Shown here: positions 23,589 through 29,772 of the stretch, one piece after another
Layout of the letters: every line of letters begins with the position of its first letter
How positions within the stretch are numbered: the first letter of the stretch is position 1
Origin: Nitrospirota bacterium
GTDB lineage: Bacteria > Nitrospirota > JACRHJ01
Assembly: GCA_963733375.1 (NCBI GenBank)
Contig: CAVTDB010000001.1
Coordinates: forward strand, 43,071-107,070
DNA: 64,000 bases
Reading direction: 5' to 3'
The notes under the pieces: model-generated
What the model was told of the DNA's origin: nothing
The model's input: the letters and a program-made list of their open reading frames with translations, nothing else
Databases searched by the model: none
Program-made: the position numbers and the translations under genes

Positions 23589-24237
23589 ATGCAATTCTTC
23601 AGATGCCAGATATGCGGCGACGTTTACATCGGGACTCATGGCCCCGTCCAACTGCCCGTACTGCGGCGCAAAGGCCAAATATCTGGTGCCGCCCGAGCAG
23701 TGGGTCGATGAAAACCTTACCATAACGAAGCTGTCGGACGTTTCCCGGCAAAACCTTGAGAGGGCGCTCCAGCTCGAAGTGGACAATACCCCTTTCTACC
23801 GCGACGCCTCCGCGAAAGCATCGAGCCTGAAGCTCCAGGGGGTGTTCAAGGGGCTGGCGAAGGTGGAGAACGAACATGCTACCGTGGTCCGGAAGATTTT
23901 GAAATGCGAGTTCCCGCCGCCGGACCCCGCGCACTCCACCGCGACGGGTGACGACGCCGAAAACCTCCGGGTTGCGCACGAAAGGGAGATAGAGGCATCG
24001 AAATTTTACGCCCAGTCTTCCGTGCAGGCAAACGAGCCGCGGGTAAAAAAGGTATTCCTCGCGCTCGCGGAGATAGAGGCGGACCATATAAAGCTGGAAC
24101 GGGAGTTGATGCAGCCCTCACCCCTGCCCCTCATGCGGGCATCCAGGTTAAAACCAAGCCCTGGGTCCCAAGTAGCATGGGGCGAGGGATTAAGAAAATT
24201 TGTCATTCTGAGCGGAACGAAGAATCTGCCCCTATGA
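23589..24237 (+). CDS. Rubredoxin-ferritin (reverse rubrerythrin-like) protein with repeat-derived C-terminal tail
   Basis: MQFFRCQICG...CPYCGA (frameshift near 23637); E..FY, ENEH and EADH diiron motifs. Confidence 0.8.
24115..24227. repeat. Cluster of REP-like elements inside the rubrerythrin 3' end
   Basis: CCCTCACCCCTGCCCCTC...CCCAAGTAGCATGGGGCGAGGG with nested CCAGG..CCTGG, then GTCATTCTGAGCGGAACGAAGAATCT. Confidence 0.6.
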
Positions 24238-25621
24238 AACTATCCTGTTTTAAGGCTTACGACGTCCGGGGCAAGGTGCCGGAAGAGCTTGACGAGCTGC
24301 TGGCATACCATATTGGCCGGGCGCTGGCACAGGTGTTGAATCCGGGGGCCGTGGTGGTCGGGCGGGACGTGCGGCTCTCAAGCCCGGAGCTGGCGGCAAT
24401 CTCTCTCCCGAGGGGCTTATGGATTCCGGCATGGACGTGCTGGATATCGGGCTATGCGGGACGGAGCAGGTCTATTTCTCCACCGCCCACCTTGGCGCGC
24501 GGCGGGCGTCCGGCGGAGTGATGGTCACCGGAAGCCACAACCCCAAAAGCGATAACGGGATGAAGTTCGTCAGCGAGCAGTCGAAGCCAATCAGCGGAGA
24601 CACCGGACTTAAAGAGATAGAGGCGCTCGCCGCGAATGGGACGTTCAGGGATGCGGCGCGGCGAGGCGAGATTAAATACCGTCGACACCTCCGAAGCATA
24701 TATAAGCCAGCTTTTATCATACATCGAGCCTTTCTCTCTCCCGCCTTTCAAGGTCCTGGTAAATCCCGGCAACGGCTGTGCGGGCCCGGTAATCGACATG
24801 CTGGAGAGGCGGCTGCGGATTCCCCATCTCCCCGTCCCTCCGCTAGGGCGAGGGATACAATTCGTAAAAATATTCAGCGAGCCGGACGGGAGTTTCCCGC
24901 ACGGCATCCCGAACCCGCTCCTGCCGGAGAACCGTGACGCGACCGCAAGAGCGGTAATCGAATCCGGCGCGGATATAGGCGTGGCGTGGGACGGGGACTT
25001 CGACCGCTGTTTTTTGTTCGACGAGAAAGGGAAATTCATCGAGGGATATTATATCGTGGGACTGTTAGCTAGGGCGATGCTGGCAAAACATCCCGGCGCA
25101 AAAATCATCCACGACCCGCGCCTGACATGGAACACCATGACATCGTAAAATCCGCAGGCGGGATTCCCGTCATGAGTAAGACGGGCCACGCGTTCATAAA
25201 GGAACGGATGCGCGCCGAGGATGCGGTTTACGGCGGCGAGATGTCCGCCCATCATTATTTCAAGGATTTCGCGTACTGCGACAGCGGGATGATACCGTGG
25301 TTACTGGTGCTTGAGCAGATGGCGAAAAAGGGTAAAACCCTTTCCGAGCTTGTCGTGGAGCGGGAGAAATTATATCCGGTTAGCGGAGAGATAAACCGCG
25401 AGATAGCCGACCCGGCGGCGGCTCTTGAAAAAGTGGAAGAGCATTACGCGCCCGGCGCGGTTTCCATAGACCATACCGACGGCGTCAGCATCGAGTTCCG
25501 GGAGTGGCGCTTCAACCTCCGCATGTCCAATACCGAGCCGCTGGTGAGGCTGAATGTGGAGGCGCGAGGGGACAGGAAATTAATGGAGCAGAAGACGGAA
25601 GAGCTGCTTGAATTTCTCTAA
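24234..25621 (+). CDS. manB: Phosphomannomutase/phosphoglucomutase (several frameshifts)
   Basis: [34 protein letters not shown]. Confidence 0.92.
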
Positions 25622-25634
25622 CGAGGTAAACTAA

Positions 25635-25983
25635 ATGAAGAAATTCATATTATCTTTTGCATCAGCAGGATTTATATTGCCACTTATATTGCTTTCTATT
25701 TCTGTTAGTATTCCAAATGCTCCTATCATTTTCGACAAAATTAAACTCGCCTTGTGGCCGAGTTCCTCGCAACTGACGGTTATATATACCTGGTCCTTCA
25801 GTGATCTAATAAATCTCTTTACATCAATAGGTTAATGTTTTAATTTATTCAATAATAGGATTATTCTTTTGGTTGGGCTTGCATAAAAACCGTTTGATTC
25901 TTTTAATCTTAATCCCATCGATTTTCTTGCTTGAATACAAATGGCTTCTTTTCATCTTCGGGCCACGATTGTTTATAAATTAA
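25635..25983 (+). CDS. Small AT-rich membrane protein (frameshift near 25830)
   Basis: GAGG SD; hydrophobic ORF continues NVLIYSIIGLFFWLG...FIN* in the shifted frame. Confidence 0.55.
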
Positions 25984-26090
25984 GGAAGAGCGTTACGCCC
26001 CCGGCGCGGTCTCCATCGACCATACCGACGGCGTCAGCATCGAGTTCCCCGACGGGCGCTTCAACCTCCGCATGGCCAATACCGAGCCGC
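25984..26090 (+). pseudogene. 107-bp diverged duplicate of the manB 3' region (25435-25541)
   Basis: Manual alignment: 9 mismatches in 107 bp, no gaps. Confidence 0.9.
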
Positions 26091-26098
26091 GATAAATC

Positions 26099-27034
26099 TC
26101 AAAAATAATTATTTGGTAATTTAATTTCTATTTCTTTTTTCCTTATTTGTTTTCCGTAATTTATTAATAAATCCATTCGTGCTTTAGCCAAAGCTATATC
26201 CTTTGCAAAAATTTCGAATAAATCATTCCAGTATTTATATGAACCTCGCGAAAAGAAATTAGCTTGGTCGCAATGAACAACAAGAGTGCCGAGCAGTTCA
26301 TTCTTATCAGATAATACTGGATATATAATCGACGATTTGATGCGTTCTTTTTGATTATTATATAATTCTTTATAATCGTTGTTCGTTGAAGTATTTTCTA
26401 TTATTTTCATACTTGGTTTTGATTCCTCATAAATTTTCGCCGTAATGGTATTATTATAAACATCGGGGTTATCTTTTCTTAATATCATACTGCGGGGTGC
26501 GCGTCCTTCTCTGTTTGCGCAAGCAGGAATTGTAATTTTTCCATCAATATACGATTTTGTCATAAACGTAACTTCAAAATCGATTCGATTTTGAAATCTG
26601 CTAGATTTTCCAAAAGCCGCTTCAAAAGTATTATAAGCAGCTTCAACAGTATTTTGAATATATTCTATTGAAGTACTGAATGCTTCAATAAATTTTTCTT
26701 TATTTATATTCTCAATTTTCAAAGAAGATAATCTGTGTGATAACAACCTGTCTAAATATGTGTAGGCATGTAAAACAACGGCTTGTAATTCTTCTTCTTC
26801 ATGATGCAATCTATCGCGGATGAAAATGATATATCTAGTAATAGCAACTAAAAAAGCAAATAATACAGTAAAGGTTATGGCATGCACCCATATAGGTTTT
26901 CCTACTTTAGCAATTTCGCCTATCCAAAAAGATAAATAAGCCGCAAAATAAAAGGGGACGGCAGTAATAAGACCGCCAATAAATATACGAAGGAAAACTG
27001 GTAGAGCATCATATTTTTTTATGAGTGATTCCAT
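26099..27034 (-). CDS. 2TM + GAF-like domain protein
   Basis: Two N-terminal TM helices; C-terminal IKSSIIYPV...LLGTLVVHCDQANFF...IFAKDIALA GAF-type signature. Confidence 0.7.
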   Translation of the reverse strand: MESLIKKYDALPVFLRIFIGGLITAVPFYFAAYLSFWIGEIAKVGKPIWVHAITFTVLFAFLVAITRYIIFIRDRLHHEEEELQAVVLHAYTYLDRLLSHRLSSLKIENINKEKFIEAFSTSIEYIQNTVEAAYNTFEAAFGKSSRFQNRIDFEVTFMTKSYIDGKITIPACANREGRAPRSMILRKDNPDVYNNTITAKIYEESKPSMKIIENTSTNNDYKELYNNQKERIKSSIIYPVLSDKNELLGTLVVHCDQANFFSRGSYKYWNDLFEIFAKDIALAKARMDLLINYGKQIRKKEIEIKLPNNYF

Positions 27035-28325
27035 CTTCCACCTTTGTTAAAGGGATATACTTTTCAATAAATTTTATAGTAGTCGGTATTAATATGTAAT
27101 TCGGAATTTCCTTTATTGTGCTACATTCAATTATCAGAATGTTTTTCATTTGATTATTTATTCCTTCAGCAATAAACGAATTTTTTATTTCTTTACACTT
27201 AATAATAATGCACGGCTTTTTTAATGAATATGCTAATCCAAATTCATAGTGAGAACCATGACTTTCTCCCAAAATTGATATAAATAAATCACAAGCAGCA
27301 ACGTGCGCGGTACATTTTTCGACAACCTCCTTCGAAGTTAGTTCTTTATTTCCCCATTTATTAACATCTCTGTGTGGCAAAATATTGTCTATCCCTACCT
27401 TATTTAATTTATTTCCAATTTCATTTAACATTGTTCTATATTCACCACGTAAAATTTTGCCATGTGCGGAAGATGCTTTAATTAATATTTCCTCTTTATC
27501 TGACTCCTTTTCTATTGCAACAGCTGTAAAGGGCGCAGCTATATACGCTAATGGATAAGTCTTAGCTTCTGTTTTTTTACTTTCTGATTTTATAATTTCA
27601 GGATATTTTCTTTCTCCTGCTGTTTTTTCTTTTGCTGCATAAATAGGACTTAAAATTTTTATTTTTTCTTCTTCAACCGAATTTTCAAATAAATTAATCT
27701 GTTCTGGAATGCTAACAGATCTGCGCAAAATAATTAATATTTCTTCCAGTATCGATTTTTGTATAGTTGAATTTCGAAAATCTACCACCTCACTATTTAT
27801 TCTATAAAACGGTCCCAATTTATACGAGTTAATCCATTTATTATATAATTCATTTATATCGTCTAAATGGTTAGGAGGATAAAGTTTTTGAAAATCTCTT
27901 CCTCTAGTTGCTATTCTTTTCTTAATTATGTCTAACGGGCAATCACAATATATGATTAAATCAGGATTCGGTAATTCTAATATAAAATGATCAGCTAAGA
28001 TTTTATAATTTTCATATGATCTATCATTTATATATCCATTCCGATAGAAATATTCCGCAAATATATAAATGTCTTCATAAAAAGACCTATCTAATATAAA
28101 ATCATACCTATTTGTCATTTCTTTGATTTCTATAGCTTTTTGACATAAAAATGATATTTGGGTTTCGAAAGCCCATCGTTTAGGATTATCAAAAAGATCA
28201 TTAAGATATTTCAGGCCTAATGGGCTTTCAGGTAAATAATTCCAACCCATATTACTTGACAAAGCACGGGCTAAAGTAGTTTTACCGCTACCCATATTCC
28301 CAGCTATAGCAATAAACCAAGTCAT
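27009..28325 (-). CDS. Deoxynucleoside kinase fused to NDT/Rcl-like N-glycosidase domain
   Basis: GNMGSGKTT, LDRSFYED, RIATRGR; C-terminal YIAAPF...CD...GSHYEFGLAYSLKKP. Confidence 0.8.
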   Translation of the reverse strand: MTWFIAIAGNMGSGKTTLARALSSNMGWNYLPESPLGLKYLNDLFDNPKRWAFETQISFLCQKAIEIKEMTNRYDFILDRSFYEDIYIFAEYFYRNGYINDRSYENYKILADHFILELPNPDLIIYCDCPLDIIKKRIATRGRDFQKLYPPNHLDDINELYNKWINSYKLGPFYRINSEVVDFRNSTIQKSILEEILIILRRSVSIPEQINLFENSVEEEKIKILSPIYAAKEKTAGERKYPEIIKSESKKTEAKTYPLAYIAAPFTAVAIEKESDKEEILIKASSAHGKILRGEYRTMLNEIGNKLNKVGIDNILPHRDVNKWGNKELTSKEVVEKCTAHVAACDLFISILGESHGSHYEFGLAYSLKKPCIIIKCKEIKNSFIAEGINNQMKNILIIECSTIKEIPNYILIPTTIKFIEKYIPLTKVEDGITHKKI

Positions 28326-28338
28326 AAAAAAATCCTTT

Positions 28339-29772
28339 CTATAAAACCGCGCTCATCAGCCGCGCCATATTCTCAAGGAACCTCTCAAGGCGCGCGCGCT
28401 TCTTGTAGCGCGTCAGGTTCAGTTCCATCGAGTTTTCCAGGTCTTCGAAGAAATGTTCGTTGAGGTGCTCCGCGACGGCCTTGGAGTAGCAGACCGCGCA
28501 GACCTCGAAGTTCAGCCGGAAGCTCCGCACGTCCATGTTCGCCGTCCCGACGATTCCGAGCTCGCCGTCCGCGCTCATGGTCTTTGAGTGTATAAATCCT
28601 TTTTGATACTGGTATATCTTGCAGCCGACCTCCAGAAGCTCCTTGAAATACGACATGCTGGCGTACTTGATAATCTTCCGGTCGAAGTTCATGGGGACGA
28701 GGAGCCGCACGTCCACACCCCGGAGCGCCGCCGCGACAAGCGCGGTCTGCACGGACTCGTCCGGGACGAAGTACGGCGTCGTGATATACAGTTTTTCCTG
28801 CGCGGATGTAATGGCGGTGAAATAGAGCTTCGCAACCTGGTCTATCTGCCTGTCCGGGCCGGACGGCACGACCTGGACTATCTCGCCCTGCGCGTCATCC
28901 GGCCAGTCCTTTACCAGGTACTCAGCCGCGAGCATCTCGTTCGTGACGTAGAACCAGTCCTCCGCGAATATGAGCTGGAGATGGCTTGCCGCCGGGCCGG
29001 TAAGTTTTATGTTCGAGTCCCGCCAGTACCCCAGCTGCGGGTCGCGGCCCAGGTACTCGTCCCCGATATTTATCCCGCCGGTGTACGCGGTCTTTCCGTC
29101 CACCACCAATATTTTTCTGTGGTTACGGAAGTTCGCGTACGCGCCGCGCAGACGCGAGAAATGCACCGGCCTGTACTCCCGCACCTGGCCTCCCGCCTCT
29201 ACTAGAGGCTCGAAAAATTTAAGCTTCGTGGACCAGGAGCCTATGTCGTCGTACATGAGCCGGACCTCCACGCCCGCCAATGCCCGCTCGATCAACATAT
29301 CCCGGAACTTTATCCCCGTCTCGTCCGGGCGGAATATGTAGTACATGGCGTGGATGTATTTTTCGGCCTTCGCCATCGCCTCGAACATATCGGGATAAGA
29401 TTCCTTCGCGTCGTTCTGCACCTCGACTATGTTCCCGGTGGTCGGGGGCGGGCCGGGAAAGCTGTAGGCGAGGCGCATCAGGCCCCGGTGCCGCCTGATT
29501 ATCGCGGTGAGAGATTTGCTGAAAGTCTTGTCGAACTTCAGCTTTTGCCTGACGTCGCCGAAAGCCTCGCTTATCGCCTTGAGGAGACGGATGCGCATAT
29601 TCACCTTGCGTCTTCCGAAGACGAAATATGCGCCCAGCCCTATGAACGGGAGGAGCACCATCGCGAGCAGCCATGCCATGGTGGCGGCTGGACTCTGGTG
29701 CTCATAGATGATGAAAACGCAGGAAAGGATAATACCCGCGGCCAGGACGGACAGGATGAGGAGTGTCAACAT
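28339..29772 (-). CDS. cls: Cardiolipin synthase
   Basis: PLDc_N TM region; two HKD motifs (NHRKILVVD, IHSKTMSAD). Confidence 0.95.
   Translation of the reverse strand: MLTLLILSVLAAGIILSCVFIIYEHQSPAATMAWLLAMVLLPFIGLGAYFVFGRRKVNMRIRLLKAISEAFGDVRQKLKFDKTFSKSLTAIIRRHRGLMRLAYSFPGPPPTTGNIVEVQNDAKESYPDMFEAMAKAEKYIHAMYYIFRPDETGIKFRDMLIERALAGVEVRLMYDDIGSWSTKLKFFEPLVEAGGQVREYRPVHFSRLRGAYANFRNHRKILVVDGKTAYTGGINIGDEYLGRDPQLGYWRDSNIKLTGPAASHLQLIFAEDWFYVTNEMLAAEYLVKDWPDDAQGEIVQVVPSGPDRQIDQVAKLYFTAITSAQEKLYITTPYFVPDESVQTALVAAALRGVDVRLLVPMNFDRKIIKYASMSYFKELLEVGCKIYQYQKGFIHSKTMSADGELGIVGTANMDVRSFRLNFEVCAVCYSKAVAEHLNEHFFEDLENSMELNLTRYKKRARLERFLENMARLMSAVL

Follow-up and report, generated by a model that had tools for sequence, protein, structure and literature searches.

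In a 64,000-nucleotide stretch of a Nitrospirota bacterium (GTDB lineage JACRHJ01; GenBank assembly GCA_963733375.1, contig CAVTDB010000001.1, positions 43,071 to 107,070 of the forward strand), here called the window, two overlapping genes form one horizontally mobile functional module. Gene 1 (27009..28325, minus strand, 438 aa) was assigned from its open reading frame (ORF), Pfam, and an AlphaFold model as a deoxynucleoside kinase (dNK) fused to a nucleotide N-glycosidase resembling MilB and BlsM. Gene 2 (26099..27034, minus strand, 311 aa) encodes, according to its ORF and model, a predicted two-helix membrane hairpin, a stalk helix, and a GAF domain. The module is marked by recognizable domains, intact catalytic motifs, obligate pairing, mobility, and swapping of effectors. 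We propose, with a probability of roughly 0.45, that it is a conflict system, anti-phage and of the abortive-infection type, made up of a nucleotide-processing enzyme and a ligand-gated membrane effector. That the pair serves in defense, or in biological conflict more broadly, is the more general claim and one that we consider probable.

Gene 1 and gene 2 occur and move together

An alignment-based scan of one genome per GTDB species yielded 19 loci spanning about 12 phyla; a single gene-2 protein as query gave none. Gene 1 adjoins gene 2 in 18 of the 19, the last being a 1.6-kb contig that ends at gene 2. In 16 of these 18 loci gene 1 precedes gene 2; in the other 2 the genes are convergent. 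In a metagenome set (62 loci, not dereplicated, 61 with a gene-2 match), gene 1 is adjacent in 48 of the 49 testable loci, upstream in 35, convergent in 9, and downstream in 4; 12 loci end at a contig edge, and one (L084, where the match is an 86-residue fragment) has no gene 1. The two stay linked whether gene 1 lies upstream of gene 2 on the same strand, downstream of it, or convergent to it. By protein search, gene 1 has 177 relatives and gene 2 has 284, and among the 120 of each that were listed, about 41 gene-1/gene-2 relatives, counted by eye, share an identical longest-contig size. A first-pass annotation of the window, made from its sequence without database searches, had proposed co-occurrence elsewhere as a check on its reading of the pair, and these counts bear it out.

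The histories of the two proteins also agree. Across 32 loci their pairwise identities correlate (Mantel r 0.83, a value reached in 0 of 2000 permutations), though kinship inflates such a test. The 32 were left after removal of 14 loci that were duplicates or had been fetched twice and of every locus that lacked a near-full-length match to either gene. Together with the scattered distribution, this correlation supports joint transfer. The GC content of the pair lies below that of its flanks in 18 of 18 genome loci, by 0.03 to 0.20. An N-terminal XRE-type helix-turn-helix (HTH) is present in 31 of the 120 listed gene-1 homologs; those of L001, L019, and L048 are among them and retain gene 2 as partner. 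Five of the 19 host genomes were searched for paralogs of gene 1 with a different partner, and none turned up beyond the single copy already known from each. At L002 and L003 the same element with identical neighbors occurs in bins labeled Candidatus Cloacimonas and Smithella, which reflects either very recent transfer or binning ambiguity.

The pair is a clean insertion in its own genome

In the window the pair sits cleanly inserted, as a segment of about 2.35 kb, between a phosphomannomutase (PMM) gene and cls, a cardiolipin-synthase-type gene (PLDc_2 match in Pfam, 7e-47). The inserted segment (25984..28340) holds both genes and a 107-bp repeat and is missing from relatives. In a genome of the same genus (G002), PMM and cls abut, and homology to the window ends at 25983 and restarts at 28324; in a further genome, G001, and in five genomes of the same family, the two genes are likewise adjacent and the pair is missing. 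A relative is represented by contigs in three peat-metagenome runs (X2-X4), each from a different study, and these contigs join 25983 to 28341, skipping 2357 bp. Genes 1 and 2 overlap by 26 bp, and 13 bp separate the cls stop codon from the gene 1 ATG (28326..28338, minus strand), a spacer that reads as the ribosome-binding-like AAAGGA followed by seven T. GC content is 0.29 to 0.38 across 26000-28499 against about 0.5 to 0.6 in the flanks, and 0.302 for the gene pair against 0.551 in the remaining window. ORFs, GC content, and empty sites thus agree with the first-pass description of two intact, AT-rich genes inserted 13 bp past cls.

Within the phylum gene 2 is present in 1 of 401 sampled genomes, the window's own; the pair is horizontally acquired and rare. 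The route of arrival may be recorded in the 107-bp segment at the gene-2 end of the insertion (25984..26090), a copy of the 3' part of the PMM gene whose resident counterpart lies within that gene at 25435..25541 (direct repeat D1). The copies are 92% identical and 549 bp apart, and the inserted copy is closer to the PMM end of G001 (96%) than to the window's own PMM (92%), which suggests that the pair came in when the genome recombined with DNA from a relative in which it already stood next to PMM. Neither an integrase nor a transposase was found within the insertion. The source genome is a bin, 81% complete with 5.2% contamination, and none of the public metagenome contigs compared bridges the insertion junctions; run X1, which may be the sample that the bin came from, holds short contigs 99-100% identical to portions of both genes, none spanning a junction. 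An assembly chimera is an unlikely origin of the AT-rich block, since both junctions lie inside one 107-kb contig, at an exact intergenic site that is empty in relatives.

A cassette that is small, foreign in GC content, scattered in its distribution, and devoid of mobility genes, with its two genes overlapping, is also what an addiction element would look like, in which a membrane toxin is silenced by the enzyme's metabolite and the cassette serves only its own retention. We regard this as highly improbable. The proteins are large enzymes, three- and four-gene variants exist (see below), and a scan of IMG/VR with two peptide patterns for phage-borne relatives found 0.

Gene 1 fuses a deoxynucleoside kinase to a MilB/BlsM-like N-glycosidase

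The first half of gene 1 (residues ~1 to 205; 27711..28325, minus strand) is a full dNK domain. It matches Pfam dNK (PF01712) at 133.3 bits against a gathering threshold of 27 (E 1.3e-38; residues 5-195, profile positions 1-197 of 203), so that the threshold is exceeded over the whole kinase domain. The AlphaFold model (pLDDT 86.8) finds its best matches by Foldseek and by the fold search VIA among deoxynucleoside kinases: Giardia dAK 8puu (Z 22.6), human dGK 2ocp (21.3), and Mycoplasma mycoides dAK 2jas (20.2). Among 36 homologs, G9, G12, G14, K15, and T17 of the P-loop, D79-R80, R137, and R141 vary in 10% of the sequences at most, Q56 is invariant or nearly so, and E33 aligns in a profile alignment with the Glu of the EP(V) motif of 8puu and 2jas. 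We take the P-loop, the catalytic Glu after strand 2, the D/E-R-S motif, and the arginine-rich lid to have their usual roles here. The complete kinase with P-loop, DRS, and lid that the first-pass annotation had read is therefore upheld by the Pfam score and by the conservation of the motifs. Like dAK, dGK, dCK, and Dm-dNK, the domain retains the P-loop, Glu33, Gln56, Asp-Arg-Ser, and the lid arginines; it differs from them in being fused to a glycosidase that would destroy the kinase product and in that Glu33, as read by eye, is missing from some family members.

Beyond a low-confidence linker (residues ~206 to 255 of the model) lies the second domain (residues ~256 to 425; 27051..27560, minus strand), a predicted nucleoside-5'-monophosphate N-glycosidase. 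In the window protein Pfam Nuc_deoxyrib_tr (PF05014) scores 27.0 bits, under its cut-off of 28.8; some gene-1 homologs do carry this family in precomputed lists. A profile built from 17 C-terminal domains and compared to the PDB finds MilB at 2.4e-14, BlsM at 9e-13, and the CMP N-glycosidase 4jen at 1e-11, and with Rcl/DNPH1 (0.004) and the true transferases far behind. The fold comparison by VIA also puts MilB first. Residues 256-424 of the model match MilB (4ohr) with Z 18.0, rmsd 2.7, and 150/158 residues, ahead of NDT (13.4), Rcl (12.8), and TIR domains (~11). The earlier assignment of the domain as an NDT/Rcl-type N-glycosidase consequently stands as to superfamily fold and shifts as to closest kin, which is MilB/BlsM rather than Rcl.

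The catalytic residues are in place. The motifs YIAAPF and GSHYEFG are invariant among the 36 homologs, and S355-x-G357-x-H-x-E361 aligns with MilB S97, G99, and E103, with S355, G357, and E361 themselves invariant. The first-pass reading of YIAAPF and of a catalytic-type Glu was correct. In MilB, Glu103 is the catalytic residue, Ser97 and Gly99 contact the phosphate, and Phe22 stacks (PMC4081090); the last corresponds to F266, by the aligned ranges of the fold match. The same report has Arg23 recognizing the hydroxymethyl group, Glu62 the 4-amino group, and Asp78 the ribose. All three are replaced in gene 1, by Thr267 (a mapping that likewise rests on the aligned ranges of the MilB match), Asn322, and an invariant Cys338. 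By these contact criteria the domain is not a hydroxymethyl-CMP hydrolase. It looks like an active nucleoside-5'-monophosphate N-glycosidase whose preference for base and sugar appears to differ from that of MilB. A hydroxymethyl-pyrimidine nucleotide as the substrate, an idea taken from MilB and DNPH1, is weakened, as the Arg/Lys that reads the hydroxymethyl is Thr here. The domain is thus closest in sequence and fold to the CMP and hydroxymethyl-CMP N-glycosidases MilB, BlsM, and BcmB, and it differs from them in its fusion to a kinase and in lying in no antibiotic gene cluster. The fusion as a whole would convert a nucleoside to its monophosphate and then to free base and sugar phosphate.

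We also considered that the MilB-like domain acts on NAD+, as a TIR-like glycohydrolase or cyclase giving an ADP-ribose-derived signal as in Thoeris, with gene 2 as the receptor and the kinase sensing infection. A MilB-like N-glycosidase-TPR fusion in an anti-phage operon reportedly makes a cADPR isomer and consumes NAD+ (preprint 10.1101/2023.05.26.542521), TIR domains are among the fold matches, and gene 1 gives weak Pfam hints to DUF4062 and SLOG, the former described as a TIR-like NADase. Gene 1 nonetheless keeps both the S-x-G by which MilB binds the monophosphate and the MilB catalytic Glu, MilB stands above TIR in fold (Z 18.0 versus ~11) and in sequence (1e-14, with no TIR family among the Pfam matches), and fusion to a nucleoside kinase suggests that the substrate is a nucleoside monophosphate made in situ. 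We therefore hold activity on NAD+ to be very unlikely.

Gene 2 carries a GAF domain behind a predicted membrane hairpin

The model of gene 2 (pLDDT 93) shows helices at residues 13-44, 48-107, and 112-141 and an alpha/beta core at 153-297. Residues ~13 to 44 and ~48 to 72 are hydrophobic, and family-averaged hydropathy peaks at ~17-37 (TM1, moderate) and 48-70 (TM2, strong) with a very short loop between them; the predicted transmembrane hairpin (residues ~13-72; 26819..26998, minus strand) has an outer loop of 3-8 residues. Given two membrane segments and so short a loop, the N terminus and the GAF domain would both be cytoplasmic. Pfam recognizes the GAF domain (residues ~150-297; 26144..26587, minus strand) weakly, at E 0.01-0.02 and below threshold (GAF_2, 16.5 bits versus 28.6; GAF, 15.9 versus 22.4). 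Structure is clearer. Every listed Foldseek match of the model is a GAF domain, and VIA, which is independent of Foldseek, places the GAF domain of PtsP first (3trc, Z 15.0, 167/168 residues), followed by free Met-R-sulfoxide reductase (3mmh, 14.8) and 1vhm (14.4). The protein has no kinase, cyclase, DNA-binding, or other output domain. Model, hydropathy, Foldseek, and VIA thus converge on the two transmembrane helices and GAF-like domain without output that the first-pass annotation had described, and they answer its question whether the C-terminal domain has a GAF fold.

Conservation points to the GAF pocket and the first membrane helix. Alignment of 35 gene-2 sequences has 23 invariant columns, concentrated in the GAF domain, and TM1 bears a conserved PFYFAA.LS motif. 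A scan of 1.84 billion cluster representatives places 215 in the family at E<=1e-3 and 144 at 1e-30, nearly all ~290-335 aa long and matched end to end. Length is thus uniform at about 310 aa, and an output domain is missing throughout the 215. At three convergent loci (L015, L065, and L070) gene 2 was called as a longer ORF of 366-390 aa, a hint that the convergent type has an N-terminal extension. A predicted complex of gene 1 with residues 72-311 of gene 2 gave ipSAE values of 0.00 and 0.00 in runs made without controls, and it carries no weight either way.

A third gene, a NUDIX variant, and exchanged partners

The only family that recurs beside the pair is a PP-loop gene (~315 aa), which in 9 of 18 genome loci lies immediately upstream in the same orientation; the next cluster of neighbors covers 3 loci. 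In the metagenome set, tblastn finds it in 20 of 62 loci. Its product belongs to PF01171 and is closest in NCBIfam to TtcA (2.6e-25, under the cut-off), with TilS and TtuA also matched, and its SGGKDS, its P-C-x-x-C, and a third Cys are all invariant. The three-Cys pattern is presumably the iron-sulfur thiolase signature of TtcA and TtuA.

Such a partner fits a mobile small-molecule module that has nothing to do with immunity and either detoxifies nucleoside analogues or makes a modified (e.g., thiolated) pyrimidine base, with gene 2 as an accessory bound to the membrane. TtcA is of the pyrimidine thiolase type, the closest solved relatives of the glycosidase, MilB and BlsM, serve nucleoside-antibiotic biosynthesis (PMC4081090), a QueC-like PP-loop protein beside a PfkB-NDT fusion has been interpreted as salvage (PMC13329287), and many neighborhoods are housekeeping. 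Set against this, no further biosynthetic, transporter, or resistance genes recur beside the pair, the distribution is extremely patchy, and the TIR and EAD1-protease partners described below are parts of conflict systems (PMC7159879). We judge a non-immune function to be quite unlikely.

In one group of loci the glycosidase is replaced. In the NUDIX variant (L032 and L033, which are identical, L079, and L085), the PP-loop gene comes first, then gene 2, next a gene for a NUDIX hydrolase (4e-22), and last a dNK that stands alone (1e-32); the segment L032:1421-8728 also holds an IS200-type transposase, a convergent MazG-like gene, a methyltransferase, and a second, soluble GAF protein.

Elsewhere it is the membrane protein whose place is taken. 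At L051 (322-4302) a PP-loop gene, a paralog of gene 1, and the gene for a 534-aa protein form a tight operon, after which comes an ordinary pair of gene 1 and gene 2. The paralog is 32% identical to gene 1, with the glycosidase residues intact and E33 and R80 of the kinase changed. The 534-aa protein ends in a CAP12/Pycsar TIR domain (PF10137, 2.7e-33; PADLOC PDC-S35, 4e-47), also matches the PADLOC models for the CBASS TIR effector and PycTIR, and begins with a helical, TPR-like domain. This N-terminal domain is not a recognizable GAF, as hhalign found no similarity between the gene-2 family and the TIR protein. Its 356 aa recur at 49% identity in P0243 (697 aa), fused there to EAD1 and a trypsin-like peptidase. 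The longest contig of P0243, 7984 bp, has the same size as that of the gene-2 homolog P0123, an observation that is suggestive only. The L051 operon is probably a sister system with a different effector, and the pairing of a paralogous enzyme with a CAP12/Pycsar-type TIR fits the logic of an enzyme with a swappable effector.

These variants bear on the main alternative, that depletion or sanitation of nucleotides (dNMPs or modified nucleotides of the phage type) by gene 1 (or by NUDIX and MazG) is itself the antiviral act and the membrane GAF protein a sensor or brake on the enzyme rather than the killer. All of the variable enzymes (the MilB-like glycosidase, NUDIX, and the MazG-like protein) degrade nucleotides, and the changed E33 and R80 beside an intact glycosidase in the L051 paralog hint that the kinase half can be a nucleotide-binding regulator. 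A precedent may exist in DcdV of Vibrio cholerae, in which a P-loop kinase-like domain joined to a dCMP deaminase reportedly provides phage defense. MilB and DNPH1, moreover, act on hydroxymethyl-pyrimidine nucleotides (PMC4081090 for MilB; PDB entry names for DNPH1). Three observations count the other way: a TIR or protease protein replaces the GAF protein beside a paralogous enzyme, as befits an effector slot; the hydroxymethyl-reading Arg23 of MilB is Thr in the gene-1 family; and conservation is higher in gene 2 than in gene 1 (0.42 versus 0.38 in mean pairwise identity). Depletion as the antiviral act is, in our estimate, unlikely. The PP-loop third gene and the NUDIX variant, along with the MilB/BlsM-like nature of the glycosidase and its changed base- and sugar-contact residues, are what the present analysis adds to the first-pass annotation.

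A proposed coupling of enzyme to membrane effector, and its probable place in defense

The coupling of a nucleotide-processing enzyme to a ligand-gated membrane effector, already proposed in the first-pass annotation, is preferred on account of the shape of gene 2, the conservation of its pocket and TM1, and the TIR/protease protein found in the same slot. For this system we infer a substrate, a ligand, a direction of control, an action at the membrane, and a role in defense as follows. The dNK domain of gene 1 would phosphorylate a pyrimidine-type (deoxy)nucleoside to its 5'-monophosphate, and the MilB-like domain would cleave the N-glycosidic bond, leaving the free base and (deoxy)ribose-5-phosphate. 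Where the TtcA-like PP-loop enzyme is present, as it is in about half of the relatives, thiolation of the pyrimidine probably precedes these steps. A product of the pathway, or the loss of its substrate, would then be read in the cytoplasmic GAF pocket of gene 2, and the long stalk helix could relay the resulting change to the hairpin, which may oligomerize or open and so halt the infected cell. A published prediction holds that base-releasing enzymes generate second messengers in conflict systems and places GAF among their nucleotide sensors (PMC7159879). A bolder form of the proposal, which we put forward as a doubtful one, is a new branch of immune signaling, whose messenger, unlike a cyclic nucleotide or an oligonucleotide, would be a free (often 2-thiolated) pyrimidine base or (deoxy)ribose-5-phosphate, made by a dNK-glycosidase with or without a TtcA-like thiolase and read by GAF on a pore-forming hairpin or, in sister systems, by a helical sensor with TIR or protease.

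A role in defense is supported by the mobility, rarity, and foreign composition of the pair, by the exchange of its effector for TIR and EAD1-protease proteins, and by some of its neighbors. A GmrSD gene and a DUF1156 methylase directly follow gene 2 at L047, an Mrr-type nuclease precedes it at L072, HerA lies upstream at L082, AbiEii lies 1.6 kb upstream at L004, and the TIR operon adjoins the pair at L051. For 144 neighboring ORFs of 17 genome loci, the top 25 entries of the PADLOC tally include three type I methylases, two TIR proteins, AbiEii, WYL, and two PDC candidates. No nucleoside-salvage family is among the top 25 Pfam families listed for these neighbors, which speaks to the possibility, raised in the first-pass annotation, that homologs sit in salvage operons. 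That annotation had interpreted the pair as a candidate defense system and had named four findings that would tell against it. Three were looked for (separation of the genes elsewhere, residence in salvage operons, and a C-terminal domain of other than GAF fold), and none was found. Co-occurrence, GAF fold, mobility, and the swapped effector lend its interpretation partial support.

Several observations weigh against our proposal, some against defense and others against the coupling of enzyme and effector. The PADLOC and Pfam tallies of neighbors are dominated by housekeeping families, defense genes stand beside the pair in some loci only and are absent from many neighborhoods, and of 10 large neighbors picked by hand in 8 loci, PADLOC gave one clear hit (AbiEii), one marginal hit, and none for the other 8. 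The flanks of the pair in the window are themselves housekeeping genes (cls and PMM). Neither the window nor its genome has the PP-loop partner; the best PP-loop match of the genome (67.5 bits) is partial, covering profile positions 13-165 of 320, and is thus a housekeeping PP-loop enzyme rather than the partner. Copies of gene 1 or gene 2 at L008, L016, L038, L057, L078, and L080 have an in-frame stop or frameshift, a minority of loci in which these reflect either decay or sequencing errors. Replacement of the glycosidase by NUDIX (and MazG) is easier to read as an exchange of nucleotide-degrading effectors than as the making of one specific signal, and a GAF protein with two transmembrane helices could equally be a membrane-anchored regulator. 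To our knowledge, the known synthases of immune messengers are cyclases, nucleotidyltransferases, or TIR enzymes, and a kinase-glycosidase is unlike these.

Relation to described systems

The logic of the system is familiar, and all of its parts are new. Pycsar pairs a cyclase with a transmembrane cNMP-binding protein, CBASS occurs with 2TM-SAVED effectors, and type II Thoeris pairs TIR with 2TM-Macro. With these the pair shares a two-gene operon, in which a nucleotide-processing enzyme is followed by a short membrane anchor with a small-molecule-binding domain and no other output, and an effector slot swappable for a CAP12/Pycsar-type TIR. It differs in lacking cyclase, CD-NTase, TIR, SAVED, CNBD, and Macro and in having a kinase-glycosidase and GAF instead. 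In Pfam and PADLOC, neither protein matches a cyclase, CD-NTase, CNBD, or SAVED family as would be expected of Pycsar or CBASS, or a TIR, SIR2, or Macro family as in Thoeris types I and II; the TIR fold match of gene 1 is at Z ~11 versus 18 for MilB, and the CAP12/Pycsar TIR domain is present only in the neighboring protein at L051.

Likeness to other systems is partial. Gene 1 resembles DcdV and other nucleotide-depleting defenses in joining a kinase-type nucleotide-binding domain to an enzyme that destroys pyrimidine nucleotides, and it differs from DcdV in having a glycosidase in place of a deaminase, a membrane-anchored protein partner, and no match to the dCTP deaminases of PADLOC. QueC-family cluster 4 with its PfkB-NDT protein (PMC13329287) offers a PP-loop ATPase beside a kinase-NDT fusion, often with an HTH; there the kinase has a PfkB rather than a dNK fold, the PP-loop protein is QueC-like rather than TtcA-like, and no GAF membrane partner is reported in the accessible part of that paper. 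BcTir/Tpr (10.1101/2023.05.26.542521) and the NDT-like effector of retron Ec86 are glycosidases of the NDT/MilB fold in anti-phage systems, which, in the accessible descriptions, act on NAD+ or as retron effectors and have neither a kinase fusion nor a GAF partner.

That the pair is not a described system, as the first-pass annotation had supposed, agrees with every catalogue searched. In PADLOC-DB v2.0.0 (2023), gene 1 matches only VakA (7.6e-10, kinase part) and gene 2 only KwaA (0.017, transmembrane part); gene 2 and the PP-loop gene lack a model there, and no described system matches both genes of the pair. NCBIfam of June 2026 has no family for gene 1, gene 2, or the PP-loop gene, and the names given at source are "deoxynucleoside kinase," "hypothetical protein," and "GAF domain-containing protein." Literature searches, which left subscription journals and supplements largely outside their reach, and which took in the text of the DefensePredictor preprint, found no description in which a dNK or an NDT-type enzyme is paired with a membrane-bound GAF protein and nothing relevant for the PADLOC name VakA.

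Surroundings of the insertion

The PMM/phosphoglucomutase gene next to the insertion (24177-25621) is broken over alternating frames, with ORFs at 24177, 24419, 24636, and 25127. Compared to the open frame of 518 codons in G002, the window has extra single bases at 24397, 24411, and 24680, five extra bases between 24835 and 24851, and a 9-nt insertion at 24500-24508. The split gene is either a pseudogene or a product of assembly indel errors. Between it and the insertion lie about 360 bp (25622-25983) that are AT rich (GC ~0.39), contain a 66-aa hydrophobic ORF without a Pfam match (25635-25835, plus strand), and are common to G002 and the relatives in runs X2-X4. At this place G001 has about 430 bp that do not match the window's stretch, making the gap between PMM and cls a variable spot in the genus.

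Implications

The family is small, sharply delimited, and two genes long and is thus easily tested. If it serves in phage defense, it would bring a messenger chemistry, kinase plus N-glycosidase with an optional thiolase, and a type of receptor, GAF on a membrane hairpin, that none of the described defense systems compared here uses. It would also link enzymes of the nucleoside-antibiotic type, MilB and BlsM, to immunity and give a direct test of the prediction that base-releasing enzymes make messengers (PMC7159879). Should the pair instead be a module for sanitation or detoxification, a function would be defined for a conserved, unnamed family of 215 cluster representatives.

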